DNA from: a virus
Taxonomy: Duplodnaviria > Heunggongvirae > Uroviricota > Caudoviricetes
DNA length: 24,323 nucleotides
IMG/VR virus record: IMGVR_UViG_2645727563_000003
Coordinates: 1-24,323 of that record
Reading direction: 5' to 3' (one strand)
Shown here in pieces: positions 3,443 to 17,390 of this stretch (position 1 is its first letter; every line of letters begins with the position of its first letter). A model generated the notes under the pieces. The model searched no databases and had not been told where the DNA came from. It saw nothing but the letters and a program-made list of their open reading frames with translations. A program made the translations under genes and the position numbers.

Positions 3443-3768
3443 TTCCCGCCTCCCTTTTTCACCAAACTTGTAAGAACATTCAGAATGCTATCGATATTCA
3501 CTCGTTTCATCCCTGAAATCACCTCATGACCGTTATTGCTGGCTATCGTTACCATTAAGTACGTAATTGATAACTCCCAGCCCTCGTGTTGCCCCAATAG
3601 GTACGCCACCGCGCCAGCTGTCACTGCAACAAAGATCTCCGTAACCAATCCCAACAAATTGCCAGACTGGCGACCGTCTCGGACATCCATCAGGAACGTG
3701 CCTATCCCACCAATTACTGAAAGCAGGAGCGCAATAGCAACTGGAGCTAATTCCTGTGTGTCAAGCAC
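3439..3768 (-). CDS. lydA: Holin-like membrane protein (LydA-like), GTG start
   Basis: 109-aa ORF with three hydrophobic segments. No in-frame ATG near the 5' end; GTG at 3768 is preceded by AGGAGGG at 5-nt spacing. Confidence 0.6.
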   Translation of the reverse strand: MLDTQELAPVAIALLLSVIGGIGTFLMDVRDGRQSGNLLGLVTEIFVAVTAGAVAYLLGQHEGWELSITYLMVTIASNNGHEVISGMKRVNIDSILNVLTSLVKKGGGK

Positions 3769-3773
3769 AAGTT

Positions 3774-3794
3774 CCCTCCTACGTTGTCAGGAGG
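3774..3794 (-). promoter_or_regulatory. SD-sequestering hairpin upstream of the holin-like gene
   Basis: On the mRNA: CCUCCU - 8 nt - AGGAGG(G) - 5 nt - GUG start; the anti-SD hexamer is perfectly complementary to the SD. Confidence 0.45.
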
Positions 3795-3835
3795 TAATGG
3801 TATGCAAAGTAACTTCTCAACCGGTCATTTGTTGC

Positions 3836-4117
3836 TTAAGAGGCATTTCTATTGAGGTGCGAATCGATAATCCTTTGTAACTTTTCAAGAATGAGCCTGT
3901 TATTGATGCTGCAAATAATAGTCACGCAATTCTGAAGACTTTCATCCATACCCTTATATTCCGCGAAATACATGCCTATAAAGCCTGCAAGTACGGCAGC
4001 AATACACTCGGCCATCAATTGCCTGCATGACGCTTCGTAACGTTTTTCACGAACCCCATTCAGAAACGAATGCACCCCGCCAAGGATGGAGAGGAGCATT
4101 ATTGTGAAATCACACAT
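3836..4117 (-). CDS. Second holin-like membrane protein, paralog of the 109-aa gene
   Basis: 93-aa ORF; AAGGA 8 nt upstream of ATG 4117. Aligns full-length with the 109-aa protein (shared LLS.IGG...FL..VR..R, AV.AG, TI.S.N, IDS.LN). Confidence 0.6.
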   Translation of the reverse strand: MCDFTIMLLSILGGVHSFLNGVREKRYEASCRQLMAECIAAVLAGFIGMYFAEYKGMDESLQNCVTIICSINNRLILEKLQRIIDSHLNRNAS

Positions 4118-4244
4118 AACTATTTCCTTAATAGTGAATTAAATATCATTGGGAAACGGTATGTACTTTGTGATTTCCACACATACTGGTTTTTGTTAAT
4201 TAAAATCCGCAGCTTGCTATAAATAACGATAGTGAGCAGAAAAT

Positions 4245-4292
4245 ATGCTAATAGGCTATGTACGCGTATCAACAAATGACCAAAACACTGCT
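4245..4292 (+). pseudogene. cin: 5' remnant of a Cin/Gin/Pin-family serine DNA invertase gene
   Basis: ATG at 4245 encodes MLIGYVRVSTNDQNTA, the characteristic invertase N-terminus; the frame then diverges and stops after 47 codons, with no catalytic domain. Confidence 0.7.
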
Positions 4293-4372
4293 TTACTCAG
4301 ACGCCACCGGAAGGAAAAATACGTATTTGCGGAGAGAATGGACAACCCGCATGGGGGGATGTTCCTCCTCCA

Positions 4373-4588
4373 ACGAAAGAAGAGCTAATGGCTATTGCAG
4401 AAGCCAGGAAATTAAGCTTAAAGGCTCAAGCGGACTCTGAAATCGCCTGGCGATAGGATGCGGTTGATGCCGGTATCGCGACGGATGAGGAAACCGCCGC
4501 GCTTTCTGAATCGAAGAAATGCCGGATCCTGCTGATGCGCGTTGATACAGCAAAACCCGTATGGCCTGTCAATCCGCAGGATATTTAA
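4373..4588 (+). pseudogene. 3' fragment of a tail fibre assembly gene (U'-like), no start, internal TAG
   Basis: Frame 2 encodes ...[64 protein letters not shown], resembling the conserved Tfa C-terminus (lambda Tfa ends ...[27 protein letters not shown], from memory). In-frame stop at 4454-4456. Confidence 0.6.
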
Positions 4589-4802
4589 CGGGGGCGTTGT
4601 AGGTGGTGACATATTCAAGCAGTTCTGTTGGATATGTCACCGTTGCTGCATCTCGCTCTACGTTAAATGTATCCGCTCCCCAGATAACACACTCCCTCAA
4701 AAATGCCTCCACCTCTGGCGAGACTTCAACCGCATCATCAGGTCGCTCTTGTTCAGAAACATAAAAACCAACGGTCGTTGGGCTGAAATACATATTCTCC
4801 AT
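4569..4802 (-). CDS. Truncated tail fibre assembly protein (U-like), N-terminal 77 aa only
   Basis: ATG 2 nt after the fibre stop. [15 protein letters not shown]... is Tfa-like; the ORF ends inside the antisense of the opposite-strand tfa fragment, so 3' ends overlap by 20 bp. Confidence 0.5.
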
Positions 4803-4804
4803 AT

Positions 4805-7800
4805 TTAGTATCCTATTGCTTCAAAATGCAAAGTCGGAATTTCGCCGAGATTGGGTGTCGTATACGACACAGTGAATCGCGTTCTTGATACGTCAGTGCC
4901 AGAATCAGTATCGCGATGCGTTGCCAGTGATTTCCCAGCCATTGATGACTGGGTCGAAAAGCTGTAACTCGCTAGTGTTGCCAGCGTTGCTATTTGTGCA
5001 TTTGGGAATTGTCTGGGGAAATTAACCCTGTAGTAATGGGTGTAGTACGTCACCCCACCAAGCACCTGCGCGTTGAAGTTACCAACTGGTGTCAGTGTCA
5101 CAGTGCCAACCTGTCGAATCATACCATTTGGGAGAATATCCCAGGCAGTTTGTCCGTTTCGCGACATACCAAATGCGGACATGTCCGGGAGTTGATTATT
5201 ACCGGTTCCGACATCCCGTTTTGCCGCTTCTCCCAATTGAAGGTATGCGAGAAGACCAGCAACATCCTTTCCACTCAAATTAGTCAGCGTATTGTCCAGC
5301 GGTTGTTTGCCCGCCAGTGCGCTCTGTACTTCGCTTTTGCTGTAGGCATCCAGATCTTTAGGCGTAAGCGTAATATCCTTCGTGCCGTCAAACGGAACGC
5401 CGTTGATATTCCGTGCAGTCTGTAGTTTTGTGGCAGTTGCAGCATTACCAGTGGTGTTCTGATTACCCGTAGTGTTTACACCTGGAAGATTAATATTGGC
5501 GGAGCCATCGAATGACACGCCGCCTATTGTGCGTGCTGTTTGCAGTTTTGTTGCAGTTGCAGCATTGCCAGTAGTGTTCTGATTACCAGTTGTATTCACA
5601 CCAGGGATGCTGTCTTTTTTAGTATATATCTGAGCCCAGCCCTCTTCGAACCCATAGCCATCACGTGATGAACGGTAATACAATCCACCATTTTTATGGT
5701 GCGCTCGGATTTGGAGAGTCCGACAACTACCTACGCCTGTATAAAAATTTGCAACGATATAAGAATCCCCGGAGCGTGTAACATTATACGCACCTGATTC
5801 GGCATTCCACGGGACCGCACCACTAGTATCGGCATAAGTTCCAGTAGCGCGTAGAGCAAAAGCAGATACATTTTCAGCTGTTAGTGTTATATCAGCAGAA
5901 CCATCAAAAGACACGCCGCTTATTTTTCTAGCAGTTTGCAACTTCGTAGCCGTTGAAGCATTGCCGTTCAAACTACCATTGATGCCGCCAGTAACATCGA
6001 GCCCATTACCGATCGTAACAGCTCCATTGGCATTGTTAATGATAAGCGGCCTTAACCTATTATAGGTTCCCAGGCTGTTACCCGAATCGGTCAACATGAA
6101 ATATGTGTTTGAGCCATCGTTTCGGATAAAGAATCCATAGTTGCCATAGGCAATGCGCAGACCATTCCCCGATTTTGAAATGATCTCACCAGTAGCCGTT
6201 AAACCGCCGTTGAGATTTCCTCCGGTTATTGGTAATGCGCCGACATCCGTGGCGGTCGGTTTAATGTGCGAACTGTAAATGACATATACCGTTCCATCAG
6301 TAAGACCAGTTGGTTTATTCGCTGTATAAGTTGGTGATGTATGAATCGTTACGCTGGCGTTACTGGTATAATCCCATTGAATATTTACACCAGTCGCATA
6401 ATTTCCGATTGCAACGTAAATATCGTAAGTATCACCAGATGTATTGACCCAGGCAAAATTTGTAAACCCTGTCGATGTGCGCTGCCATAAAGCACCAGTA
6501 ATCCCCTTCGGATTACCATTACCTGCACGCAAAACAAGTTCAGATATACCTGCCTGTTGAGGTGACCCCACGTTAAATCCCGCGCCACCAATCAACGTAA
6601 TTGAAACAACAGAACTCGCCTGTGGCATGGTTACCGTTGCTAATTTGAACCAACCAGCACCACCGCTGAATGACATTGTTGTTGAGTTGATCGTGCCTAT
6701 AGACCTTGGAGTTAGCTCAATGTTTTTAGAACCGTCAAACAATACCCCATTTATAGTTCTAGCGGTTTGTAACTTGGTCGCTGTAGCCGCGTTACCGGAT
6801 GTATTCTGATTACCCGCAACGTTAACACCAGGTAAATTAATATTCGCAGTACCATCAAAGCTAACTCCGCCGATAGTTCTTGCCGTCTGTAGTTTTGTAG
6901 CGGTTGCTGCATTGCCAGTTGTATTCTGATTGCCAGTGGCATTCACACCAGGAATGGAGTCCCTTGATGTATATACCTGCGCCCACGCTGACCATGCCGC
7001 ATCAGTGTTATCTCTTCGGGAGCGAATGAAAACCGGCGCATGTGCACCGCTCGTACCACTCCAGCCAATAAGCAACTCGCCCTCACCAGCAGCACTCGCA
7101 CCTTTCATGTGCAATACGTTGCCATACGTGGTCGGGTAGCTATTGTTGTACGCCTCGTACATTTGAATGCCAGCAGTACCCTGAGTAGAGCCACTTAACG
7201 CCGTTACGCGCCCGCGTGATACCAACGTATTGATATTAACGTCCCCTGAACCATCAAATTTAACACCGTTGATGTTTCTTGCCGTCGCAAGTTTTGTCGC
7301 GGTAGCAGCATTCCCGGTGGTGTTCTGGTTACCTGTTGTATTTACACCTGGAAGGTTGATATTGGCCGAGCCATCAAATGCCACACCGCCAATCGTGCGT
7401 GCTGTTTTCAATTTCGTCGCGGTGTCGGCGTTCCCTGTCAGTGCCCCGGTGATCCCGCCGTTGAAAGTCTGGCGTGCACTCCATGTGTTAGCCGTACTCA
7501 ACAGGGGGATCTTTTCACCGCTGGTACCGAGTTCTCTTAAACCAAGGTATTGGATAACGGCCAGTGTGCTTGTTTTAGCCAGAATATCGCGACCGACTGA
7601 CGTTAAATCAGTCTGCGCTACCGTATCCTTACCAGTGAAATAAGGCAGTTTGTTTGCACCAGTCGCAAGGGCAGCGAGCGCGGTTAAAGTTGCATCCAGA
7701 GGCTGTTTGCCTGCCAGCGCATTTGTCATTGTTGTCGCAAAGTTCGGGTCATTGCCCAGTGCTGCTGCAAGCTCATTCAGGGTATCAAGAGCTTCAGGTG

Positions 7801-8905
7801 ATGAGCCGACCAATGCAGAGATAGCAGCTCTTACATAAGCGGTCGTAGCAATCTGCGTGTTATTCGTACCCTGTGCAGCGGTAGGCGCAGTAGGTATTCC
7901 CGTTAATGCAGGACTTGCTAAAGGAGCTTTAAGAGCCAGAGCATTGTTGATAGTTGTGCTGAAATTCGGGTCGTTATTGATCGCAGCCGCTATTTCTTTA
8001 AGCGTATCCAGTGTGCCAGGTGCACCGTTGATAAGTGCCGTTATAGCTGCCTTAACAAAGGCTGTATTTGCGATCTGCGTGCTGTTTGTACCTTGCGCTG
8101 CCGTCGGCGCGGTTGGCGTTCCTGTCAGACTCGGGCTTTCTATTGGCGCTTTGGTATCAGCCAGCTCTTTTACAGACTTAACGGCTTTAGGGGTAGCCGC
8201 CATTGTTTCGCTGTCGCTGTTAGTTGCGCTACTGAGCTGAACTAATCCCTTTTGTGTTGTGCTTGCATCCTGCGCCGTATACTTGCTTTTAGCCAGATCG
8301 TAGGCTTTTTTAACCGCCAGCGAACTTGCAGCGACATCACTTCTGGTACTGGTTACAGAGTCGGAAATTTCAATGCCTATCGCGAGATCGATGCGGTCGG
8401 ATACATCTATCATTTCCTTAGTAATAGCAGATACGCCAGCAGGGATATTCACCGTACAAACAAGCAGTTCCCCATCTCCTAACTGATATGAATCGGTATA
8501 GGTTCTGGCAACAAATTCAGCCGCATGAATATGTGACGCGGTATTAACCTGATAAGAATCTTCTCCAAGGAGGTATCTTCCCTTCAGCACAATTGCATAT
8601 TTCTTACCTGCGCTAAGTGCAAGAGAAATATCCTTACGCTGCTGAATAGTTACCTGGTAGAATTCACCAATATTCACTGACGCCGCGCCAGCGGTTTTAT
8701 CACCATCCACTGAGGTGATTAACAGGTTCATCCCACCGCCAGGCTTAGGAAAAAAACCGGCATAAAATCCAGGGTCAACAATTCCCCTGAATTTTCGGTT
8801 TAGCGCGGCTGACAGATATGGTTCGTGGTATTGCACATCAGCCACCAGAGCCAACGACTCGGGTGATGGGTAAGTAACCGATGTGACAACTGTAACGTCA
8901 TTCAT
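4805..8905 (-). CDS. Tail fibre protein (S-like) with collagen-like repeats
   Basis: Start chosen at ATG 8905 (MNDVTVVTSVTYPSPE...), AAGGA 10 nt upstream, 11 nt after upstream stop; the longest ORF extends to 8992 but overlaps the upstream gene. At least seven ~40-aa repeats (PGVNTTGNQNTTGNAATATKLQTARTIGGVSFDGSANINL) and two ~75-aa N-terminal modules. Confidence 0.8.
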   Translation of the reverse strand: MNDVTVVTSVTYPSPESLALVADVQYHEPYLSAALNRKFRGIVDPGFYAGFFPKPGGGMNLLITSVDGDKTAGAASVNIGEFYQVTIQQRKDISLALSAGKKYAIVLKGRYLLGEDSYQVNTASHIHAAEFVARTYTDSYQLGDGELLVCTVNIPAGVSAITKEMIDVSDRIDLAIGIEISDSVTSTRSDVAASSLAVKKAYDLAKSKYTAQDASTTQKGLVQLSSATNSDSETMAATPKAVKSVKELADTKAPIESPSLTGTPTAPTAAQGTNSTQIANTAFVKAAITALINGAPGTLDTLKEIAAAINNDPNFSTTINNALALKAPLASPALTGIPTAPTAAQGTNNTQIATTAYVRAAISALVGSSPEALDTLNELAAALGNDPNFATTMTNALAGKQPLDATLTALAALATGANKLPYFTGKDTVAQTDLTSVGRDILAKTSTLAVIQYLGLRELGTSGEKIPLLSTANTWSARQTFNGGITGALTGNADTATKLKTARTIGGVAFDGSANINLPGVNTTGNQNTTGNAATATKLATARNINGVKFDGSGDVNINTLVSRGRVTALSGSTQGTAGIQMYEAYNNSYPTTYGNVLHMKGASAAGEGELLIGWSGTSGAHAPVFIRSRRDNTDAAWSAWAQVYTSRDSIPGVNATGNQNTTGNAATATKLQTARTIGGVSFDGTANINLPGVNVAGNQNTSGNAATATKLQTARTINGVLFDGSKNIELTPRSIGTINSTTMSFSGGAGWFKLATVTMPQASSVVSITLIGGAGFNVGSPQQAGISELVLRAGNGNPKGITGALWQRTSTGFTNFAWVNTSGDTYDIYVAIGNYATGVNIQWDYTSNASVTIHTSPTYTANKPTGLTDGTVYVIYSSHIKPTATDVGALPITGGNLNGGLTATGEIISKSGNGLRIAYGNYGFFIRNDGSNTYFMLTDSGNSLGTYNRLRPLIINNANGAVTIGNGLDVTGGINGSLNGNASTATKLQTARKISGVSFDGSADITLTAENVSAFALRATGTYADTSGAVPWNAESGAYNVTRSGDSYIVANFYTGVGSCRTLQIRAHHKNGGLYYRSSRDGYGFEEGWAQIYTKKDSIPGVNTTGNQNTTGNAATATKLQTARTIGGVSFDGSANINLPGVNTTGNQNTTGNAATATKLQTARNINGVPFDGTKDITLTPKDLDAYSKSEVQSALAGKQPLDNTLTNLSGKDVAGLLAYLQLGEAAKRDVGTGNNQLPDMSAFGMSRNGQTAWDILPNGMIRQVGTVTLTPVGNFNAQVLGGVTYYTHYYRVNFPRQFPNAQIATLATLASYSFSTQSSMAGKSLATHRDTDSGTDVSRTRFTVSYTTPNLGEIPTLHFEAIGY
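5425..7375 (-). repeat. Interspersed near-identical 120-240 bp coding repeats inside the tail fibre gene
   Basis: Copies at about 5425-5665, 5935-6025, 6715-6955 and 7255-7375 encode the 40-aa repeat; they also generate the long spurious plus-strand ORFs here. Confidence 0.7.
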
Positions 8906-9429: not shown

Positions 9430-10269
9430 TCAGGCGTCGCTATCCAGCAACAAATCATCTGCGCGTGTGCGATCAAACGTAGGTGTCGCTTTCACAATAG
9501 TGCCACCAGGCGTTGCGGTGATCGGGGCGCTAATCGACGTAACTCCAGTAAGGGAAGTTGTATCCGAAGTTTCAAACCAGCAGTACGCTTTTTCGGTATC
9601 AGAAATCTCGTTCAAAGTGATCATGTCGGCCTGTTCATTCACAACAACCGACAAATAGAGCGTAAGCCCATCAAACACTATATGCAGTGGCAGTAGAGGC
9701 TTTACGAACTGATTAAACTTTCTGAGAATTTCTTCTGTAATTGCGGACTGATCTATCGTGCCAGTAATACCCATTGTCCGGGCCAGGTCGTTTATGGGAA
9801 TACTGATCATCCCTCTGGAAGTCAGAAACATCTCACCGAATGTGCCGCCGGTAGTTTCCAGTGTGCTTTCTGGTATTAGAACTGTGCCATAGGGATGACG
9901 TTCAAGGTCCACCGGTGCATATATCGGATCCCATAAAACAGAAATACCATTAAATTCGCGGTAAATTGTCTGGTTTATAGGGCGTTCAGTCCCCTTAAAG
10001 TGAATCTCATCAAGCCGCTGTTGTAACAACATCGGAACGGAAGATGAGTTTGAGGTTCTGATAGTAAAGAACTGGCCAAGTTCATTTGTCCTGGTCTCCA
10101 GATCCTCCTTGCTCATGGAAAAAATAGACTTCCGGTTGGTAATTCGCTCCAACCATGGGTCAACAAAGGTGTCCATCATTGACTGAACCAAATCAGCCAA
10201 TGATTTATAGAGCAATGACTTTTGCTTAGCTGATGTAAGCCGATTATTAAACCAGGAACGTTGCATCAC
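9430..10269 (-). CDS. Baseplate/tail protein (P1 gene 16 position by synteny)
   Basis: 279-aa ORF; ATG overlaps upstream stop (ATGA at 10266-10269). Confidence 0.6.
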   Translation of the reverse strand: MMQRSWFNNRLTSAKQKSLLYKSLADLVQSMMDTFVDPWLERITNRKSIFSMSKEDLETRTNELGQFFTIRTSNSSSVPMLLQQRLDEIHFKGTERPINQTIYREFNGISVLWDPIYAPVDLERHPYGTVLIPESTLETTGGTFGEMFLTSRGMISIPINDLARTMGITGTIDQSAITEEILRKFNQFVKPLLPLHIVFDGLTLYLSVVVNEQADMITLNEISDTEKAYCWFETSDTTSLTGVTSISAPITATPGGTIVKATPTFDRTRADDLLLDSDA

Positions 10270-11699
10270 TCCTCCTCATACGAAATATTAAAGGTGGAGT
10301 TTTCTGTATCCAGATAAACGAAATCGTAAAAGCCGTTGGACTCATTCCACTCGACAAATTCCAGATAAAAGTCGCGGAAATAACCCAGCGTTTCGATAAA
10401 TGCCCAAACGTCTTTTTTCTTGATCAGGATGTACTTGCCGACACCGTTCGGATCAAAGAAATTTGAGTCGCGCCCAAATTTTGTTTCCAGTGCCGACTTC
10501 AACTCATCAGTCACGTTCTCAATAGTCAGGCTTGCCGATATCCGCCCGGTGATGGTTATCTTAAATGGTAGTTTTCTGACCTCTTTATAAGAGAATTTCT
10601 TGTTCAGTTCATTCGGTACCTTCTTAAAGGCAGTCAGGATCATTTCTTCAAGCTCTGACTGGCTTTTATTTGGATGCCATCCTGAAATAAATATCTTATT
10701 GATATTCTGAACATTATAAGCACCATCTAATTTCTCTTGCTGGCCTTCGCCCCATGCCTTTACCCAGGACAGCCCCGGGATGTTACGAACCAGAAAATAC
10801 GTATAGTCCCCGCCCCATACGACCTGATCATCATAGGCAAGGTAATATTGTGCACGGTTACGTGTGATCTCCGTTGTTTCGGCATCGGTACCTGCGGTTA
10901 TAGGTGTCGTTGTCTTAACTGAAATCAAATTAGCTAAATTAGCCGCAGAATCGACAGGCGTCAGGTTTTGGCCAGCAACCAGGGTTATATCGCCGTTGGT
11001 GCACCATACCTTAAGCGTAATGGTCGAGCCTTCTGGCGGTATTTGCCCAATTAGCCCATCACCGAATCGAACCCCCAACTGCTCGGATGGTTTATAAAAC
11101 TCAACGTAGACCTGGCTTTTACTACCGGCTAACCGGAACATAGTGCTGGAAGACCACTGCGTGGTCTTACCATCGGTCGTCACGAATACTTCCAGCTTAT
11201 AGCAGACAGCAGTGAGAGCCTTTGATAACACGACTTCCAGAAATTCTTTGGCTGCCGTAACGGTATATGTCACCTCCTGGATTTCCAACTGTGCCACTTC
11301 TACCGTACCGGTGCCGTCAACCAACCTGCATACATCCATAGTCATGTAAGGATACTGGTCGTCAGATATTAAAGGCATGTTTTTGGGGATTACCGCTGGG
11401 GCATCTTCACTTGTGGCGGTGATCTCAATCATCCCCGATGACGGTGTTGGCTTGGTACCAACGTAACTATTCGTTTCTGCCGCTGCCAGGATAGAAGAAC
11501 GCCGCGTCGCGGTCGATATAAAGCCTTCAGCCAGCGCCGCATCGGCATACTGAAAGCACCTGTAGACAATCTGGGTAATAAACAATGTCAGCATCGAGAC
11601 AAATTGAGAGCCGACAAACTTCGACCAGAATGAATCTTTCTCGACAAGCTCTTCAAACTCTGCACGAATACTGTCTTTAGTAGGTGTTGTTTTACTCAT
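10266..11699 (-). CDS. Baseplate protein (BplA position by synteny)
   Basis: 477-aa ORF; start overlaps upstream stop by 4 nt. Size and position fit a baseplate component. Confidence 0.6.
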   Translation of the reverse strand: MSKTTPTKDSIRAEFEELVEKDSFWSKFVGSQFVSMLTLFITQIVYRCFQYADAALAEGFISTATRRSSILAAAETNSYVGTKPTPSSGMIEITATSEDAPAVIPKNMPLISDDQYPYMTMDVCRLVDGTGTVEVAQLEIQEVTYTVTAAKEFLEVVLSKALTAVCYKLEVFVTTDGKTTQWSSSTMFRLAGSKSQVYVEFYKPSEQLGVRFGDGLIGQIPPEGSTITLKVWCTNGDITLVAGQNLTPVDSAANLANLISVKTTTPITAGTDAETTEITRNRAQYYLAYDDQVVWGGDYTYFLVRNIPGLSWVKAWGEGQQEKLDGAYNVQNINKIFISGWHPNKSQSELEEMILTAFKKVPNELNKKFSYKEVRKLPFKITITGRISASLTIENVTDELKSALETKFGRDSNFFDPNGVGKYILIKKKDVWAFIETLGYFRDFYLEFVEWNESNGFYDFVYLDTENSTFNISYEEE

Positions 11700-12055
11700 A
11701 GCACCACGTCCTGTGTGATAGTTATATCCCTGATACGAATGGATATTTTCAACTTATCAAAAGCATCTCCCTCGGCTACTGACAAGCCAGAAATCGGTAT
11801 GTCGGGTAAATCTACCGTCAGTTTTTGCAAAAGCATTGCCTCAACCGCAATTTGAACATGCGACAAGTTGGTCGGTTCGTGTTTAAACTGCGGTAAAACA
11901 TTGCCCCATGACGGATCTCCGTATACCTCACCCTGATAAGTGTTTAGCCACTCATATAAACGAGCGCCCCAGGCCTCCTCCTGGGACTCATACGTTTTTA
12001 CGCCGGATAACTCCAGCGTCAGCAAAGGATCAATTTCGTTATTGTTGGCCATCAA
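11696..12055 (-). CDS. Small baseplate/morphogenesis protein (PmgA position by synteny)
   Basis: 119-aa ORF, 4-nt overlap with the tape measure gene stop. Confidence 0.55.
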   Translation of the reverse strand: MMANNNEIDPLLTLELSGVKTYESQEEAWGARLYEWLNTYQGEVYGDPSWGNVLPQFKHEPTNLSHVQIAVEAMLLQKLTVDLPDIPISGLSVAEGDAFDKLKISIRIRDITITQDVVL

Positions 12056-15000
12056 TCAACTCTCGCGTAGTCATTCATCAACGGATCATCAATTGACAGT
12101 GGCACCGTGCGCATAACGCCCGGTTGAGGCGTGCTGACCTTTACGACAGTTCCCTGGCCTTTCGCCGAGTCTTTAGTGTGCTCTTCAATCCTGGCAAGCA
12201 ATGAGGTCATCTGCGCAAACAGCCGCTTCGTTTCACCATCAAGTGAAACGGTATTATCAGCCAACTGCATTGTCGGCTTGGCACCGGAGCCGCCAAGGTC
12301 ACTAATAACCTGTCCGTCTATCTGCATACGACCGGTTGGTTGCTGCAAATCGTTGGCGGCAGTCGTCACCTGGGACGTGGAGGCTGGTTCAGGCGCATTA
12401 TTTTTCCGCATCCCCGGCGAGTTGCGGAGTTTATCAAATAGTCCATCAATCCCCATTTGTGCGCCGAGTTGGTCAAAGTAACTTGAATTGCTGGCCACCG
12501 GACGTGCCTCTTCAACTGGCATAGGTGTATCAACATACACATTGCCAGCTGCCGTTGCGGTCCCCTTCCCTCGTGCACGTTCTTCGAGCGTTCCCTGAAC
12601 GACTTCCCGACGCATACCCCGGCCATTCATGAATTTGTTGACCAGATCATTCACCCCCGTAAGTTCACCAATCCGGTCTACTAATCCCCCTTTTTCAAAC
12701 GGATTTTCGCCAGGGGTAAACGCCAGGCCCGTAGACTGATCAACAAAGGCGTTTTCCGGAAGGTTATCCATTCTAGGGGATTGGCTGCCTTGTTGCTGTC
12801 TTTGTTGCTGTCTCCCCCCTTGTGAACCCGCCCCGGGGGTATAAATATCACCACCTAAATAGCGAGCACGATGAGTATTGACCTTAATCGCATACTCGCG
12901 GTTTTCCTTCGATAATTCACCGGTGCCTTTTTTCCACTTATTAATAGTGCCAAACCCGGCGTTATATGCAGTGATGGCCTCGTTCCAATCTCCCTTTGCT
13001 TGTTTCAAATAATTGCTCATGAGAAGAGCAGCAGCTTCTGCCGATTTTTCTGGATTAAAAGAATCTTCCCGAGATAATCCAGTTTCCTTACGGGCAATGT
13101 CCGTAAACTGAAACATCCCGAGCGCACCACCACTCTTTTTCCCATTAACCCATCTTAACTGGGATACTGCATTTGGATTACCATTTGATTCAGTGGCTGC
13201 TATCGCATAAAGAGTACCTTCAGGAAGGCCATACTTTTTCTCAAGTTCAGCAAAATATGGAGCCAACTTATCGAGATTTGCCTTACCTTCAGCGCCAAGA
13301 CTTCCGACTTTTACATCCAAGTTGCCATTGTTGTAGGTATCCGCAGCTTTCTGAATGTCATTCCTGGTGCCAGTGGTATTAAGCGACGATGATGACGAGC
13401 TATTTTGACCAATAGCTTTATCAATTTTCTGCAACGCGCTATTGCCCGTTTCTACGGCATTTGCATTGATTATCTGATTGGCAGTTTCTTTAACTGTTTT
13501 ATTGCTATCTTTCGCCGTATCTAGGGATGCATTTACAACACGAGTGACAATATTAGCCTTTTTAGAGGTATATTCAGTCTTAGGAGCATTGTCCTCCTGA
13601 CGTTCTTTAGCAGGTGTTTTTAATTCAGGTGTAACCTCTTTCGCATCCGCTTTATTGACTAGCTTTGATGCAACCCAGGCCACTGGGGTGCTCTGAACAG
13701 CGGCATCTGCAACCTCACCTGAAAGCTCTTTTGCGGCACTCCATAGATTACTGCCAGCTTCTTTAATGTATTTCCCTGGGTTCTTAATGAAATCAATTGC
13801 ACTATCAATTGCATCACTGAAAACCTGTTTCAGGTTATCGACAGTAAAGAAGTCTTTGATGGCGTCTAATTTTTCGTTCAGACTCTTGGTTGTGTCACTG
13901 AACCAGGCTGAAATAGCATCGCCAATCTTGGCTGTGTAATCGTTGAATGTTGTGGATATGGTGTCACCAAGGTTAGAAATATATGTTTCTAAGTTGGTAA
14001 TCCCACTATCAATGGCCTGAGCAATACTTTCCGTCGAAAATGATTGCAACATATTGCCGATATCCTCAAATCCAAGTGATTTGAGAACCTCACCAATGGC
14101 GCTGCTAATACCAGATACCAGTCCCCCCATATCGAGAACGTTAGCCAGTGTATAAGCCGCTTTTTGCTGAAAAGATGGATCTTCCCCATCCTTAAGCCCA
14201 AAGGTCCGACGTTGTGCTTCTGTATCATTCCAACCGGTTACCGCATCATAGATACCTCCAGCCACCGTGCCGACTAGCGGAATTGCGCGTAAAGCCCCCT
14301 TTGCAAGAGCCTTAACACCTAGTTTCCCCAATCCCTTAGTTGCAAGTTTTCCGGCACCGCGAGTAGCCAATTCGCCAGCTTCTTTGGCAGCAGCTTTTTT
14401 CCCACCAAAGCCCAATAAGCTTGCAACTTTTTTTATACCTAAAGCGCCTAGTGCCATCGAGCCAACTTTCTTTAGTACCCCACGGCCAAAAATAAGGGAA
14501 GCAATACCACCGGCCCCCTTCCCTAACAGGCTAAATAGTTTGGACAGCAAGCCGCCCTTCTTTTTCCCGGTGTTTTTGGCTATCTGATCAAGGGCGCTGA
14601 GAATCTTGTCATTGCCCTCTTTAATTTCGCTGGTCTGCTCCTGAAGTTCCTGAACCGTCCGTTTTTGGGTGTTAACCTGAACGACATCGGCACTATTTTG
14701 CGATTTACGCCTAAAAAAACCTTTTCTACGGCTGTTATCGTCATTGCCACGAATCACATCGGCAATAGACTTTCTGGCACCATTAAGCGATCCACCAACT
14801 TCTTTTGATATCCCGCCAAGCTCCTTCCCTGCTGCCCACAATGGACCAGCAACGGCATAACCTAACGCATCGACGGCACGAGTCTCTGAAGGGTTACCTA
14901 TGCCTTCAGCTACTTTTGACAGTTTTTTTAATAAACCTGATTCAGCATTTAGACGCTCATCATCCTCTTTGCGCCTGGCCTTTTCAGCACGTTCAGCACG

Positions 15001-15801
15001 GGCATCTTCCGCTGCGGCCTTACTCCCTGACTTTCCAATAAAACGACCACGCGCATCGCGTTGGTTTTGGCTTTTTTGCGCACCGCCTTTTTGATCGAAC
15101 ATTTCGCGAGCGTGTTCGGCTGCTTCGGTCCGTTGTGCCTTTATATCCTCTGGTATAGCCTTCCTGCGTCGTTTTTTACCCTTTGGTGTAGTTGATTTGG
15201 CCTGCTGTTCCTGTTGAGCAATGCCCTCCTGAACTACACGAGAAACGTCCCCTAAATTAAGCCGTTTCATTGCGTCAACAATAGGGTCTACTGATGGCGC
15301 ATTGGCCACAAAGTCTGGCCGGGAATTTTCGATTGTTCGATTTAATGCCGACACACTGCGAGATACTGGGTCAACCGTTGCAACGCGTTCCCCTTTCAAA
15401 TCACGAGCGAGTTTGACCGTTTCTAACCGCTGTGCTTTAACATCCTCTGTTATTGCCTCTCTTCGTCTATTTGGGGGATTGTGCGCTGTTGGTGCAGCCT
15501 GCTGTGCACGGTTAGTGACTTTGTCCTCCCGTATACGAGAAACGTCCCCTAAATTAAGCCGTTTTATTGCGTCAACAATAGGGTCCACTGATGGCGCATT
15601 GGTCACAAAGTCAGGACGTGAATTTTCGATTGTGCGATTTAATGCCGACACACTGCGAGAGACAGGATCAACAGTTGCAACTCGTTCCCCTTTCAAATCT
15701 TCAACAGCTTCCCGAATACCTGCAAGCTCTTCCAGCTCTTTCGCGCTGGCGGTTTCAACTGTCCTTATAACATCGTCAATATTGGCGTTTTTTCTTTCCA
15801 T
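12052..15801 (-). CDS. sit: Tape measure protein with lytic transglycosylase (SLT) domain, Sit-like
   Basis: 1249-aa ORF. Gly/Ala/Lys-rich hydrophobic block typical of tape measures; SLT-like motif LPEGTLYAIAATESNGNPNAVS...GALGMFQF; internal ~99-aa tandem duplication near the N-terminus. Confidence 0.75.
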   Translation of the reverse strand: MERKNANIDDVIRTVETASAKELEELAGIREAVEDLKGERVATVDPVSRSVSALNRTIENSRPDFVTNAPSVDPIVDAIKRLNLGDVSRIREDKVTNRAQQAAPTAHNPPNRRREAITEDVKAQRLETVKLARDLKGERVATVDPVSRSVSALNRTIENSRPDFVANAPSVDPIVDAMKRLNLGDVSRVVQEGIAQQEQQAKSTTPKGKKRRRKAIPEDIKAQRTEAAEHAREMFDQKGGAQKSQNQRDARGRFIGKSGSKAAAEDARAERAEKARRKEDDERLNAESGLLKKLSKVAEGIGNPSETRAVDALGYAVAGPLWAAGKELGGISKEVGGSLNGARKSIADVIRGNDDNSRRKGFFRRKSQNSADVVQVNTQKRTVQELQEQTSEIKEGNDKILSALDQIAKNTGKKKGGLLSKLFSLLGKGAGGIASLIFGRGVLKKVGSMALGALGIKKVASLLGFGGKKAAAKEAGELATRGAGKLATKGLGKLGVKALAKGALRAIPLVGTVAGGIYDAVTGWNDTEAQRRTFGLKDGEDPSFQQKAAYTLANVLDMGGLVSGISSAIGEVLKSLGFEDIGNMLQSFSTESIAQAIDSGITNLETYISNLGDTISTTFNDYTAKIGDAISAWFSDTTKSLNEKLDAIKDFFTVDNLKQVFSDAIDSAIDFIKNPGKYIKEAGSNLWSAAKELSGEVADAAVQSTPVAWVASKLVNKADAKEVTPELKTPAKERQEDNAPKTEYTSKKANIVTRVVNASLDTAKDSNKTVKETANQIINANAVETGNSALQKIDKAIGQNSSSSSSLNTTGTRNDIQKAADTYNNGNLDVKVGSLGAEGKANLDKLAPYFAELEKKYGLPEGTLYAIAATESNGNPNAVSQLRWVNGKKSGGALGMFQFTDIARKETGLSREDSFNPEKSAEAAALLMSNYLKQAKGDWNEAITAYNAGFGTINKWKKGTGELSKENREYAIKVNTHRARYLGGDIYTPGAGSQGGRQQQRQQQGSQSPRMDNLPENAFVDQSTGLAFTPGENPFEKGGLVDRIGELTGVNDLVNKFMNGRGMRREVVQGTLEERARGKGTATAAGNVYVDTPMPVEEARPVASNSSYFDQLGAQMGIDGLFDKLRNSPGMRKNNAPEPASTSQVTTAANDLQQPTGRMQIDGQVISDLGGSGAKPTMQLADNTVSLDGETKRLFAQMTSLLARIEEHTKDSAKGQGTVVKVSTPQPGVMRTVPLSIDDPLMNDYARVD
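15232..15707 (-). repeat. Tandem direct duplication (297-bp period) inside the tape measure gene
   Basis: Two ~165-180-bp copies starting near 15232 and 15529, by eye well over 90% identical, both encoding LKGERVATVDPVSRSVSALNRTIENSRPDFV.NAPSVDPIVDA.KRLNLGDVSR. Confidence 0.8.
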
Positions 15802-15882
15802 GATCTTATCGCCTACCGTTTCGGTTTAAGTTTTTCTTCCAGTTTCTCCAACAGGAAAAACGCATAGGATTCAGTAAGCCTT

Positions 15883-16764
15883 TCAGCGTCCTGAATCGGT
15901 ATACCCCCATACAAAACCAGGTTGGACACTAAGGTCTGATAGCTTTTCAATCCCCACCTGTGGAATGAAGTCGGTAGCCCGAAAGGGCACCCACAGACGG
16001 GTATATGCACCCTCTGTGGACTCCTTTTTATCCTGATTTGGGCATTGATGCGGCGGGAGACGAAGACGCATTTCACCTTTATCGATGTAGCACGGTAAAC
16101 CGTGTTCGAGCTTTTCATGAGCCAGTCGGATGTGGGCCGCCAGCTTCATAAATTCAGTATCAATGGCCATCCGTTTAATCGTTTCATAACGACGCTCAGC
16201 CTGATCTTCACGAGTACCGCTAACATCGTTATAAAGCTCACACTGATAAGCGAATTCCCAAAAACGCAAATCAACGATCGCTTCTTTGAATTCCGCGTCG
16301 TCTTCAGGTGGCAATGCTGCACGGCGCATCTCCAGCATTTCCATTGCCCAACCATCAAGCGGCACGATACGCCATTGATAAGGTACTCCCTCTACAGACA
16401 CCTCAATATCGTCAATGAAAGGTTCCACTTCCAGGACCTGGATATCTTCAGCCAGAGCATTCATATCGCAATCGTAATAATGCTCTTTACCGCAATGTTT
16501 ACAGGTGTAGGTGAATGTCTCGACCGGTGTTTCACGGGAGCCGGTAAATATCCACCATAACGCGGTAATCCGGTCCTGCGCCGTCCATGTCAGGGGATCA
16601 TGTTTCGCGGGTTCAGCCAGCAAGGCTTTTAAATACGCCGTTGTCTGTTGTTCTTGTTCCTCCGGTGTTATCGAGTTGAAACGCATCGCATCAGCAATAT
16701 TTGGCTGACGGAACTGGATCAATTCAGTTGGCCGCGATGGTAGCGGGAAAAGAGGTAAAAGCAT
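15883..16764 (-). CDS. Tail morphogenesis protein (PmgB position by synteny)
   Basis: 293-aa ORF between tube-like and tape measure genes; cysteine cluster CKHCGKEHYYDCD. Confidence 0.55.
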   Translation of the reverse strand: MLLPLFPLPSRPTELIQFRQPNIADAMRFNSITPEEQEQQTTAYLKALLAEPAKHDPLTWTAQDRITALWWIFTGSRETPVETFTYTCKHCGKEHYYDCDMNALAEDIQVLEVEPFIDDIEVSVEGVPYQWRIVPLDGWAMEMLEMRRAALPPEDDAEFKEAIVDLRFWEFAYQCELYNDVSGTREDQAERRYETIKRMAIDTEFMKLAAHIRLAHEKLEHGLPCYIDKGEMRLRLPPHQCPNQDKKESTEGAYTRLWVPFRATDFIPQVGIEKLSDLSVQPGFVWGYTDSGR

Positions 16765-16778
16765 CCTTGCTCCTTAAT

Positions 16779-17390
16779 TCAAAGAGAAAAGCTAAAGCCC
16801 AGAAGGGAAGCCAAAGAACTTGAGGATTGGTTAAACGTGCTGTGCAATGCGAAGGTCATTGGGAATGACTTAAATTCAGTAACCTGATCTCGCGCATAGG
16901 TGACATCGCCGGTAGTGACCGGGAATACCGTCATCTCATTTTCCAGTTTGGTTAAGCCGGAAGACAGCAACCGATAAATACGCACATTGAGCAAATATTT
17001 AGACGGTATATTCCCGGTACCGTCCGGATTGATCACCCGACTTTTTGCCGTCTTAAACCAGTCCAAAACGAGGCCATCAACGGTATCCCTGACCATCATT
17101 GTTATCTGCCCAGGCGAACGCTCCGTTGGTTGAAGGATATTCCCTCCGCCGATTTTAATCGTTTCATATTCGATGCTGTAATCGTGGTAGGTAATATCTT
17201 TGGCAAAGAAGTCTGCCCCCTCCAGTCCATCAACTTCGACAGAGAACTGCCATCCTTGCGCGAACAGCATTTTGTTCATGATGATTGACGTCAGCTTACC
17301 AACTTCCCGTTCACCAACGCCGGAGCCAAATAATGTCGTCGTTAATGCCGAAGATACATAAGACTTTACTGAAGCAACATTAAACCCCAT
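16779..17390 (-). CDS. Putative tail tube protein (Tub position by synteny)
   Basis: 203-aa ORF upstream of the chaperone-position gene and tape measure; assignment by order and size. Confidence 0.5.
   Translation of the reverse strand: MGFNVASVKSYVSSALTTTLFGSGVGEREVGKLTSIIMNKMLFAQGWQFSVEVDGLEGADFFAKDITYHDYSIEYETIKIGGGNILQPTERSPGQITMMVRDTVDGLVLDWFKTAKSRVINPDGTGNIPSKYLLNVRIYRLLSSGLTKLENEMTVFPVTTGDVTYARDQVTEFKSFPMTFALHSTFNQSSSSLASLLGFSFSL

Follow-up and report, generated by a model that had tools for sequence, protein, structure and literature searches.

An old tandem duplication in the tape measure protein Sit from P1-like phage-plasmids, with a possible bearing on tail length

Tape measure proteins that carry muralytic domains, and tape measure proteins with internal duplications, are both well known. 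Here, we examined a tailed-phage (Caudoviricetes) sequence of 24,323 nucleotides, referred to below as the window (positions 1 to 24,323 of IMG/VR record IMGVR_UViG_2645727563_000003), whose tape measure gene encodes both. The locus raises two questions: whether its repeated segment is a recent acquisition, as originally predicted, and whether the extra copy makes the phage tail longer.

The gene occupies a single open reading frame (12052..15801, on the minus strand, as are all features described below) that starts with MERKN and encodes 1249 aa. Its product aligns collinearly with Sit of phage P1 over the full length apart from one inserted unit, at 89% amino acid identity, and the gene is 92-96% identical in nucleotide sequence to its counterparts in P1, P7, SJ46 and phi456. 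A match to PHROG 2533 joins Sit aa 133-1249 to positions 34-1130 of the 1130-position profile, which we counted as full length. The surrounding gene order, pmgC-tub-pmgB-sit-pmgA-bplA-16, and the sizes of these open reading frames agree with those annotated in P1 and JL22. Upstream of sit lie tub (16779..17390; 203 aa), which from the P1 annotation and a published structure encodes the tube initiator ring protein (PMC12810830), and, directly adjacent, pmgB (15883..16764; 293 aa), identified by synteny with P1 as an essential tail morphogenesis gene whose product has been proposed to act as tape measure chaperone (PMC9024508). Downstream, named from the P1 annotation, are the baseplate wedge genes pmgA (11696..12055), which overlaps the sit stop codon and whose wedge role has been described (PMC9024508, PMC12810830), and bplA (10266..11699; 477 aa). 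This placement is typical of a tape measure gene. The sequence identity and the shared tub-pmgB-sit-pmgA-bplA order confirm that the window gene is the orthologue of P1 sit in a P1-like phage-plasmid (Punavirus), and we hold this identity, jointly with the duplication history set out below, with high confidence.

The SLT lytic transglycosylase domain of Sit (aa 849-967; 12901..13257) is complete, and muralytic activity is predicted from it. The match to Pfam PF01464 (E=3.5e-27) covered profile positions 2-115 of 117 and reached 94.7 bits, where the cut-off is 21.3. Since the domain spans 68-77% of the way along Sit, it falls in the C-terminal third, as had been proposed, and it includes the stretch AIAATESNGNPNAVS...GMFQF (aa 865-899) together with the ES and AYNAG motifs. 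The TES motif (aa 870-872), GMFQF (aa 895-899; 13105-13119) and AYNAG (aa 945-949; 12955-12969) were retained in 4/4 aligned Sit proteins. From the analogous motifs of Slt70 and T7 gp16, we take Glu871 (codon 13189-13191) to be the putative catalytic residue. The closest solved chain to this region by sequence is the transglycosylase of T7 gp16 (E about 2e-4), an ejected virion protein that shares the TES...G(L/A)LGM(M/F)QFT...AYN(Q/A)G motifs. However, T7 gp16 is a head-internal protein of a podophage and not a tail ruler, carries its SLT domain at the N-terminus and shows no similarity to Sit outside it.

Along its length, Sit comprises a cap, two 99-aa units, a stretch predicted to be rich in helix, a hydrophobic segment, the SLT domain and a conserved C-terminal tail. 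The cap (aa 1-34, MERKNANIDDVIRTVETASAKELEELAGIREAVE; 15700..15801) is identical in P1, SJ46 and phi456, and its motif DVIxAVxxASxxELxxLAxI is retained in relatives whose identity falls as low as about 27%. The hydrophobic segment (aa 416-520; 14242..14556) is rich in Gly, Ala, Leu and Lys (22%, 18%, 16% and 14%, respectively), a glycine-rich character that is a trait of tape measure proteins; several of the top hydropathy windows begin within it (aa 425-503) and others at aa 551-555. It is also among the stretches of sit most divergent from P1 (dS about 1.0). A 17-aa unit placed by alignment at aa 717-733 (KADAKEVTPELKTPAKE; 13603..13653) occurs once in the window and in tandem, two to three times, in other sit alleles, as a 51-nt repeat present twice in L004 and three times in L005. 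The two N-terminal thirds of P1 Sit have been predicted to be mainly helical (PMC9024508). In an AlphaFold2 model of aa 1-420 of the window protein (mean pLDDT 51.8), long helices appeared at aa 261-333 and 370-412, and the repeat units were modelled roughly half as short helices and half as low-confidence coil with several prolines.

The repeat itself lies at the N-terminal end of Sit, just past the cap and distant from the SLT domain. At the DNA level it is a direct repeat with a spacing of 297 nt (15191-15402 and 15488-15699). Unit 1 (aa 35-133; 15403..15699) consists of block B1 (15535-15699) followed by a divergent linker, L1 (15403-15534), and unit 2 (aa 134-232; 15106..15402) of block B2 (15238-15402) and linker L2 (15106-15237). 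The two units share 71.7% of their 99 aa (E=1.8e-43, far above what chance would give), establishing that the proposed tandem duplication of about 99 aa is real. A search of the whole protein found no other significant internal repeat, and Tandem Repeats Finder made no call on the 297-nt repeat. The copies had been described as near-identical, which holds for the 55-aa block (53/55 residues alike; 92.7% identity over 165 nt) but not for the full 297-nt unit, which is 78% identical in nucleotide sequence; in the 44-aa linker, only 18/44 residues and 60.6% of nucleotides agree. P1 Sit had been suggested to be shorter by roughly the repeat: the 1140-aa P1 protein lacks precisely aa 35-133 of window Sit. 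Of the 109 aa that the window protein has in excess, the duplication makes up 99.

We examined the age of the duplication by comparing synonymous divergence between and within alleles. Between the two copies, dS was 0.28 and dN 0.017 in the 55-aa block (dN/dS about 0.06), and dS 0.94 (saturated) and dN 0.47 in the linker. These values are comparable to the divergence between different sit alleles, for which gene-wide dS was 0.14-0.36, and they overturn the reading of the duplication as recent; a recent event, leaving copies nearly identical at synonymous sites, is ruled out by the block and linker dS and by the 78% nucleotide identity. The block is under strong purifying selection in both copies. 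Linker L2 is close to the P1 linker (dS 0.10) and L1 is far from it (dS 0.88), indicating that unit 2 is the orthologue of the single unit of P1 and SJ46 and that unit 1 is the extra one, absent from P1. The PRSV motif of unit 2 (R148, S149, V150) shows at least 90% conservation throughout the family.

The duplication is also far from private to this genome. Of about 480 P1-like plasmids in PLSDB, 137 carry its junction, which was also found in 197-198 of 389-472 E. coli records (198 complete genomes) and in two phages, phi456 and vB_EcoM-673R5, a distribution that rules out a lineage-restricted event. A third to half of the relatives carry it, and not all. Linker L1 was confined to alleles with the duplication, at an identity of at least 97.7% in 137 PLSDB records, and the two-copy junction was coupled to differing downstream sit mosaics. 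The extra unit is an old duplication of the N-terminal unit that is now widespread among P1-like plasmids.

Alleles with one, two and three units all exist. Relatives at 27-52% identity have one unit, and in distant relatives the repeat region varies in length and is of low complexity. Three-copy sit was found in five records, one with an intact CDS of 1338 aa (pRIVM_C029554_1); in these alleles, which also include pXH987-OQX and the EC12/EC15 plasmids, the repeat family and its flanks match the window, and the additional unit is chimeric, joining a B2-type block to an L1 linker. The crossovers fall at different places (unit columns 135-166 versus 104-114), implying that three-copy alleles arose at least twice independently. 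Unequal homologous crossover inside the conserved 165-nt block thus continues to change the copy number. In some RefSeq records the sit start has been placed downstream of the repeat, which hides this polymorphism in protein databases.

Compared with P1 Sit (YP_006507.1, 1140 aa), annotated as 'putative structural injection transglycosylase; putative tail ruler', the window protein has the same cap, hydrophobic segment, SLT domain, C-terminus and neighbours. It differs in carrying two 99-aa units against one, its hydrophobic segment is longer by 8 aa, two Q-rich or RMDN insertions follow the SLT domain, and the divergence is mosaic along the gene (dS 0.015 to about 1.0). Alignment showed one unit in SJ46 Sit and two in phi456 Sit (WNL49372.1, 1231 aa). 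The N-terminal 500 aa of the latter are essentially identical to the window (dS about 0), whereas its C-terminal half is another mosaic, with dS of about 0.76 at aa 879-1078 and without a 10-aa loop of the SLT domain. Two-unit Sit proteins like that of the window are also encoded by pCARB35_01, NZ_CP100532.1 and other P1-like plasmids; sit of NZ_CP100532.1 is 97.9% identical over the full 3750 nt, and no record in PLSDB carried an allele identical to that of the window.

What would an extra unit do to the virion? P1 Sit has been described as a tape measure protein whose SLT domain is C-proximal (PMC9024508; PMC12810830), and was detected in virions by mass spectrometry (PMC9024508). In the cryo-EM model of the virion it is unresolved in the tube and appears as low-resolution density in the hub, and contracted particles lack it, indicating ejection (PMC12810830). 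Sit is an essential protein, and knock-down of sit abolishes plaque formation (PMC10695390). In P1, the trunk is built of 53 rings that rise by 40 Å each and measures 2100 Å in all (PMC10304247). The one published argument on Sit length assumed a tail of 120 nm, as against the 210 nm of the cryo-EM trunk. Phage phi456 forms plaques and myovirus particles, showing that a two-copy Sit works. We found no value in the literature for the tail length of two-copy phages, and no report of Sit length altering tail length in the P1 studies consulted (PMC9024508, PMC12810830, PMC10304247, PMC10695390); the role of Sit as the P1 tail ruler is inferential.

We propose a model in which the C-terminal end of Sit would be held in the baseplate hub, tube rings would polymerise around the protein up to the N-terminal cap, and the terminator would then close the tail. 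At infection, Sit would be ejected, its SLT domain cutting peptidoglycan and its hydrophobic segment helping DNA through the inner membrane. Because the duplication separates the cap from the remainder of the ruler, the cap should be displaced outward by 99 residues. The extra unit may then add about 15-19 nm, or roughly 4-5 rings of 40 Å, to the 53 rings of P1, and a third unit would do likewise. At 1.5 Å per residue, the 1140 aa of P1 Sit extend to only 1710 Å against a trunk of 2100 Å, leaving P1 Sit nothing to spare and favouring a ruler in which every residue counts. For the repeated unit, the AlphaFold2 model (mean pLDDT 51.8 over aa 1-420) does not predict one unbroken helix, roughly half of each unit being coil, and the contribution of the unit to length can therefore not be calculated reliably. 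Overall, we lean slightly towards an old duplication that lengthens the tail within a ruler and transglycosylase; for the lengthening on its own, we see an even prospect.

Precedents for length control of this kind come from other phages. In lambda gpH and T4 gp29, duplications and deletions change tail length in proportion, and in-frame deletions in the TP901-1 tape measure shift tail length linearly (PMC5099701). The length effects in these three systems were demonstrated by experiment, whereas that of Sit is predicted from sequence; moreover, unlike their length variants, the duplicated Sit unit lies at the N-terminus and is predicted to be helical only in part. T5 Pb2 and mycobacteriophage TM4 Tmp, which the P1 literature cites as precedents (PMC9024508), represent the same concept of a tail-lumen ruler with peptidoglycan-degrading activity. 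By description they stand apart from Sit as siphophage proteins, unrelated in sequence and with other enzymatic domains.

Alternatively, not all residues of Sit may count towards length, and the region after the cap, which carries conserved PRSV and KRLNLG motifs, might be a flexible and partly disordered spacer or docking region. An extra copy would then be compacted or sit in the neck lumen, leaving tail length unaffected, and would persist as nearly neutral or because it aids assembly by offering another docking motif, for instance to the chaperone PmgB, the tube or the terminator. We regard this as a serious though less likely alternative. The low-confidence AlphaFold2 model, in which coil makes up about half of each unit, is consistent with it, as are the variable, low-complexity repeat regions of relatives, which could be flexible spacers. 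The low dN/dS of the block (about 0.06) and its family-wide PRSV suggest a binding motif more than a passive ruler, and the coexistence of one-, two- and three-copy alleles in similar plasmids is as expected of a tolerated polymorphism. Parts of the TP901-1 tape measure inferred to contact the connector or initiator complex (PMC5099701) may be taken as not counting towards length. However, to span 53 rings P1 Sit already needs about 1.9 Å per residue, leaving little room for non-counting residues, and an insertion between conserved cap and body is the geometry expected to shift the end-marker.

It is improbable that Sit is no ruler at all, that is, mainly an ejected internal transglycosylase and channel protein like T7 gp16, with tail length set elsewhere. 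The resemblance of its SLT region to this internal core protein, the annotation of JL22 sit as 'internal (core) protein', and the shortfall of about 20% relative to the tube at 1.5 Å per residue all point that way, as does the historical finding that variable P1 tail lengths were reported for gene 6 mutants and not for sit mutants (PMC9024508). However, gp6 is the baseplate hub and far too small to act as a ruler (PMC9024508, PMC12810830), P1 has no other protein that is large enough, sit occupies the canonical slot between the tube and chaperone genes and the baseplate genes, and cryo-EM work assigns Sit to the tail lumen and hub, from which it leaves on contraction (PMC12810830). An assembly or sequencing artefact can practically be dismissed. 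Tandem repeats are prone to mis-assembly, and the XH987-type three-copy sit is frameshifted in its record, but in the window the reading frame is intact and the identical junction recurs in hundreds of independent complete assemblies and two phage genomes. Furthermore, the units differ at 22% of positions, which makes collapse or expansion by mis-assembly impossible.

The duplication allele is old and common, carried by at least a third of P1-like plasmids, and is as such an ordinary kind of feature. The natural one-, two- and three-unit forms of sit differ by exact multiples of 99 aa in phage-plasmids that are otherwise similar and can be induced. They offer a means, already at hand, of testing the ruler model and of probing how many nanometres each residue spans in a contractile tail of unusual length. 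More speculatively, the 99-aa unit may be a natural copy-number dial, with one, two and three units giving roughly 53, 57-58 and 61-62 rings, kept as a polymorphism in populations of P1-like phage-plasmids, for example because differing envelope or capsule thickness would favour differing tail lengths. If true, no natural polymorphism in tail length would have been described earlier at the population level in a model myophage, and Sit would be directly shown to be the ruler.

The sit gene of the window is a single long ORF on the minus strand (12052..15801, 1249 aa) whose nucleotide sequence shares 92-96% identity with sit of P1, P7, SJ46, RCS47 and phi456, and whose protein product aligns collinearly with P1 Sit at 89% identity. 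As in P1, the gene is preceded by pmgC, tub and pmgB and followed by pmgA, bplA and gene 16, and the whole window is a segment of a P1-like phage-plasmid extending from ddrA/darA through rlfA/rlfB. The tail-fibre module is unlike that of P1 and P7. Window positions 3836-8905 run from lydC (3836-4117) to S, the tail-fibre gene (4805-8905; 1366 aa, with Phage_fiber_2 repeats and a Gp34_trimer domain), with neither a cin invertase gene nor an invertible C-segment in between. Instead, lydC is followed by about 450 nt devoid of convincing ORFs and then by an ORF of 77 aa (4569-4802), which lacks Pfam matches and could be a remnant or a short tail-fibre assembly gene.

The motif string that led the original prediction to propose a lytic transglycosylase activity is present in the ORF, and lies inside a complete SLT domain at aa 849-967 (Pfam PF01464, 94.7 bits with a 21.3-bit cut-off, E=3.5e-27). 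This domain includes the motifs IAATESNGNP (aa 867-876, with the Glu871 codon at window 13189-13191, minus strand), GMFQF (aa 895-899) and AYNAG (aa 945-949), and by sequence its nearest solved chain is that of T7 gp16. That Sit acts as a tape measure and cuts peptidoglycan as well is the standard published view and is not new, as the P1 record annotates the protein as ‘putative structural injection transglycosylase; putative tail ruler’, Sit has been detected in P1 particles and identified as their SLT-bearing tape measure protein (PMC9024508), and in CRISPRi it behaves like an essential protein (PMC10695390). The cryo-EM model of the P1 virion likewise lists Sit as the tape measure protein, with Sit itself not resolved, and reports low-resolution hub density as well as absence of the tape measure from contracted particles (PMC12810830). 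Between alleles, the SLT region and the stretch that follows it rank among the most divergent segments of sit (dS 0.4-0.8). A 10-aa loop between the ES motif and GMFQF (window 13120-13170, aa 878-894) occurs in the window and P1 and is absent from phi456 and SJ46. The adjacent PmgB (window 15883-16764) gives a weak, sub-threshold Pfam match to T4_baseplate (PF12322; E=0.004, 17.2 bits, cut-off 24.5), a possible hint of a hub-assembly role instead of or besides its proposed role as tape measure chaperone.

At the N-terminal end of Sit, ~600 residues upstream of the SLT domain, a repeat search identified a direct repeat with 297-nt spacing (15191-15402 and 15488-15699), corroborating the predicted 297-bp-period duplication. 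The repeat consists of two adjacent 99-aa units, unit 1 (aa 35-133, window 15403-15699, minus strand) and unit 2 (aa 134-232, window 15106-15402, minus strand), and blastp among Sit sub-segments aligned the two at 71.7% identity over 99 aa (E=1.8e-43), with no other significant internal repeats in window Sit. Tandem Repeats Finder, run on 12000-15900, called only two trivial short repeats and missed the 297-nt repeat, because the copies are too divergent overall. We rejected an assembly artefact as the source of the repeat, given that the units are 22% divergent and that their junction is present in hundreds of independent assemblies. Two small ORFs, neither with a family match, lie in this region: a 175-aa ORF (15302-15829, plus strand) that contains the repeat, runs antisense through it and looks like a by-product of the duplication, and a 101-aa ORF (15813-16118, minus strand), for which a Pfam search was run and which overlaps the 3’ end of pmgB where phi456 annotates a small ‘Orf23’.

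Exactly aa 35-133 of window Sit are missing from the Sit proteins of P1 (1140 aa) and SJ46 (1137 aa), whereas phi456 Sit (1231 aa) carries this unit as the window does. P1 Sit had been expected to be shorter by about one repeat, and it is indeed 109 aa shorter, with the extra unit contributing 99 of these residues and small indels the remainder. Each unit comprises a 55-aa block (B1 or B2) followed by a 44-aa linker (L1 or L2). Of the two, unit 1 is the extra one, as the P1 linker is far from L1 (dS 0.88) and orthologous to L2 (dS 0.10). An exhaustive representative search returned only 19 matches, marking the N-terminal region as a narrow family, and the relatives found at 27-52% identity have a single unit; one unit is therefore ancestral for the family. 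These relatives conserve the N-terminal cap and the PRSV motif, with variable, polar sequence in between. A homologue search with the N-terminal 367 aa yielded mostly partial, near-identical fragments. No single-copy allele with an L1 linker, a possible donor if the duplication arose by unequal crossover between two alleles, was detected in PLSDB at blastn sensitivity. The single unit of P1 may be ancestral or a secondary contraction: its block is B1-like at its 5’ end and B2-like at its 3’ end, as a contraction product would be, and also has private differences in common with SJ46.

The duplication had been taken to be recent, which the divergence between its copies does not bear out. Nucleotide identity over the whole 297-nt unit is 78% (71.7% for amino acids), and is distributed very unevenly: the block (first 165 nt, 55 aa) is 92.7% identical, with 10 of its 12 differences synonymous and 53/55 amino acids shared (dS 0.28, dN 0.017), and the linker (last 132 nt, 44 aa) is 60.6% identical, with 18/44 amino acids shared (dS 0.94, dN 0.47). 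By these sequence estimates even the conserved blocks are as divergent from each other as different sit alleles are, gene-wide sit dS between the window and phi456, SJ46, pCARB35 or P1 being 0.14-0.36. Along the gene, dS over 100-codon windows varies from about 0 to about 1.0, a strongly mosaic pattern. Both block copies are under purifying selection (dN/dS about 0.06). The lower dS of the block than of the linker, combined with patchy variant sharing between copies (unit 1 of pCARB35 and of pXH987, unlike that of the window, is B2-like at unit columns 33-39), points to gene conversion between the blocks or to repeated crossover between them.

The duplication is not private to the window. Using a 201-nt probe across the L1-to-B2 junction, and defining carriers as records in which the probe was fully covered, we detected the junction in 137 of the 378 PLSDB plasmids with a match and in 198 of the 389 complete E. 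coli genomes with one (a longer N-terminal probe gave denominators of 479 plasmids and 472 E. coli records). The L1 linker alone had matches in exactly 137 PLSDB records, none of them below 97.7% identity. Escherichia accounts for 133 of these 137 carriers and Salmonella for 2, compared with 437 and 34 sit-bearing PLSDB plasmids overall, and the closest full-length PLSDB allele (NZ_CP100532.1) has the same 3750 nt at 97.9% identity. In the window, phi456 and pCARB35 the two-unit N-terminus is joined to differing downstream mosaics, and has thus moved by recombination. The two-unit allele is already in public records, one of them named ‘Sit’ in phi456, and within the limited literature collection searched we found no published mention of the repeat or of copy-number variation. 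At positions 4200-4899 of the NZ_CP031654.1 locus, RefSeq starts sit at 4899 (1013 aa) although the intact ORF starts at 4200 (1246 aa); several records have no annotated feature over the repeat region, and truncated Sit entries that start inside the repeat occur in protein databases (e.g. one beginning MTEDVKAQRLETVKLAR). Such late starts and truncated entries hide the repeat polymorphism.

Five records, recognised by a single 1198-nt matching piece, carry three units. The alleles of NZ_CP060921, NZ_CP060935, NZ_CP102674 and NZ_CP102677 are mutually identical (pXH987 type; array at 4005-4895 of the NZ_CP102674.1 locus, where sit is frameshifted in the record), and that of NZ_CP068934 (pRIVM_C029554_1; array at 3603-4493 of the NZ_CP068934.1 locus) has an intact CDS of 4017 nt encoding 1338 aa. 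The middle unit of both types joins a B2-type block to an L1 linker, a chimera that, judged from its sequence, is what unequal crossover of two-unit alleles in misaligned register is expected to yield. In pXH987 the switch falls between unit columns 135 and 166, and in pRIVM between 104 and 114; therefore at least two independent expansions have occurred. The array is still changing. Farther downstream in sit than the 297-nt array, a second in-frame tandem repeat with a 51-nt (17-aa, EANAKEITPELKAPVNS-like) unit adds to the Sit length polymorphism, being present in 1, 2 or 3 copies by allele (single copy at window 13603-13653; repeated at 6340-6441 of the NZ_CP031654.1 locus and 6339-6493 of the NZ_CP102674.1 locus). 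Sit lengths among the alleles seen range from 1130 to 1338 aa.

Taking gene identity, domain layout and repeat history as observed here, and the virion location and ejection of Sit from the literature, we propose that the C-terminal part of Sit would be anchored in the hub, with tube rings assembling around the protein up to its N-terminal cap. Contraction would then expel Sit, whose SLT domain would open the peptidoglycan and whose Gly/Ala/Leu/Lys-rich segment (aa 416-520) would assist membrane passage. The extra unit lies precisely where the conserved cap (aa 1-34) meets the Sit body, and in a ruler model it would therefore push the end-marker outwards. Tape measure gene duplications are a known phenomenon, and for lambda gpH and T4 gp29 tail length changes linearly with in-frame lengthening or shortening of the protein by duplication or deletion. 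In TP901-1, tail length likewise follows in-frame tape-measure deletions linearly (PMC5099701). A two-unit Sit is functional, since phi456 makes plaques and myovirus particles. A search for tail lengths of two-copy phages found none: the phi456 paper shows TEM images without dimensions, and the 673R5 preprint is without EM; the SJ46 and JL22 papers contain no mention of the tail or of sit.

The P1 trunk comprises 53 rings with a 40 Å rise, spanning 2100 Å of a 2450 Å tail (cryo-EM, PMC10304247). By calculation, 1140 aa at 1.5 Å per residue would span only 1710 Å (171 nm), short of the 2100 Å trunk, and P1 Sit would therefore have to average about 1.9 Å per residue, with no slack. Either Sit adopts a more extended form than a helix or P1 has an unusual ruler relationship. 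On the P1 ring figures, 99 aa would amount to 150-190 Å, i.e. 4-5 rings. An earlier argument, in which a helical stretch of about 750 residues matches a ‘120 nm’ P1 tail (PMC9024508), disagrees with the cryo-EM length (PMC10304247). An AlphaFold2 model covering aa 1-420 has low confidence (pLDDT 51.8) and divides each unit about equally between short helices and coil, which speaks against a simple length calculation. As the main alternative, the unit could serve as a flexible spacer or docking region with no effect on tail length, an account that we consider plausible if somewhat doubtful; in its favour, the 55-aa block is strongly constrained and PRSV is found throughout the family, both fitting a binding site. 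That Sit is not the tail ruler at all is a weaker alternative, and a very improbable one. The hypothesis of Sit as ruler is made directly testable by the natural alleles with one, two and three units.
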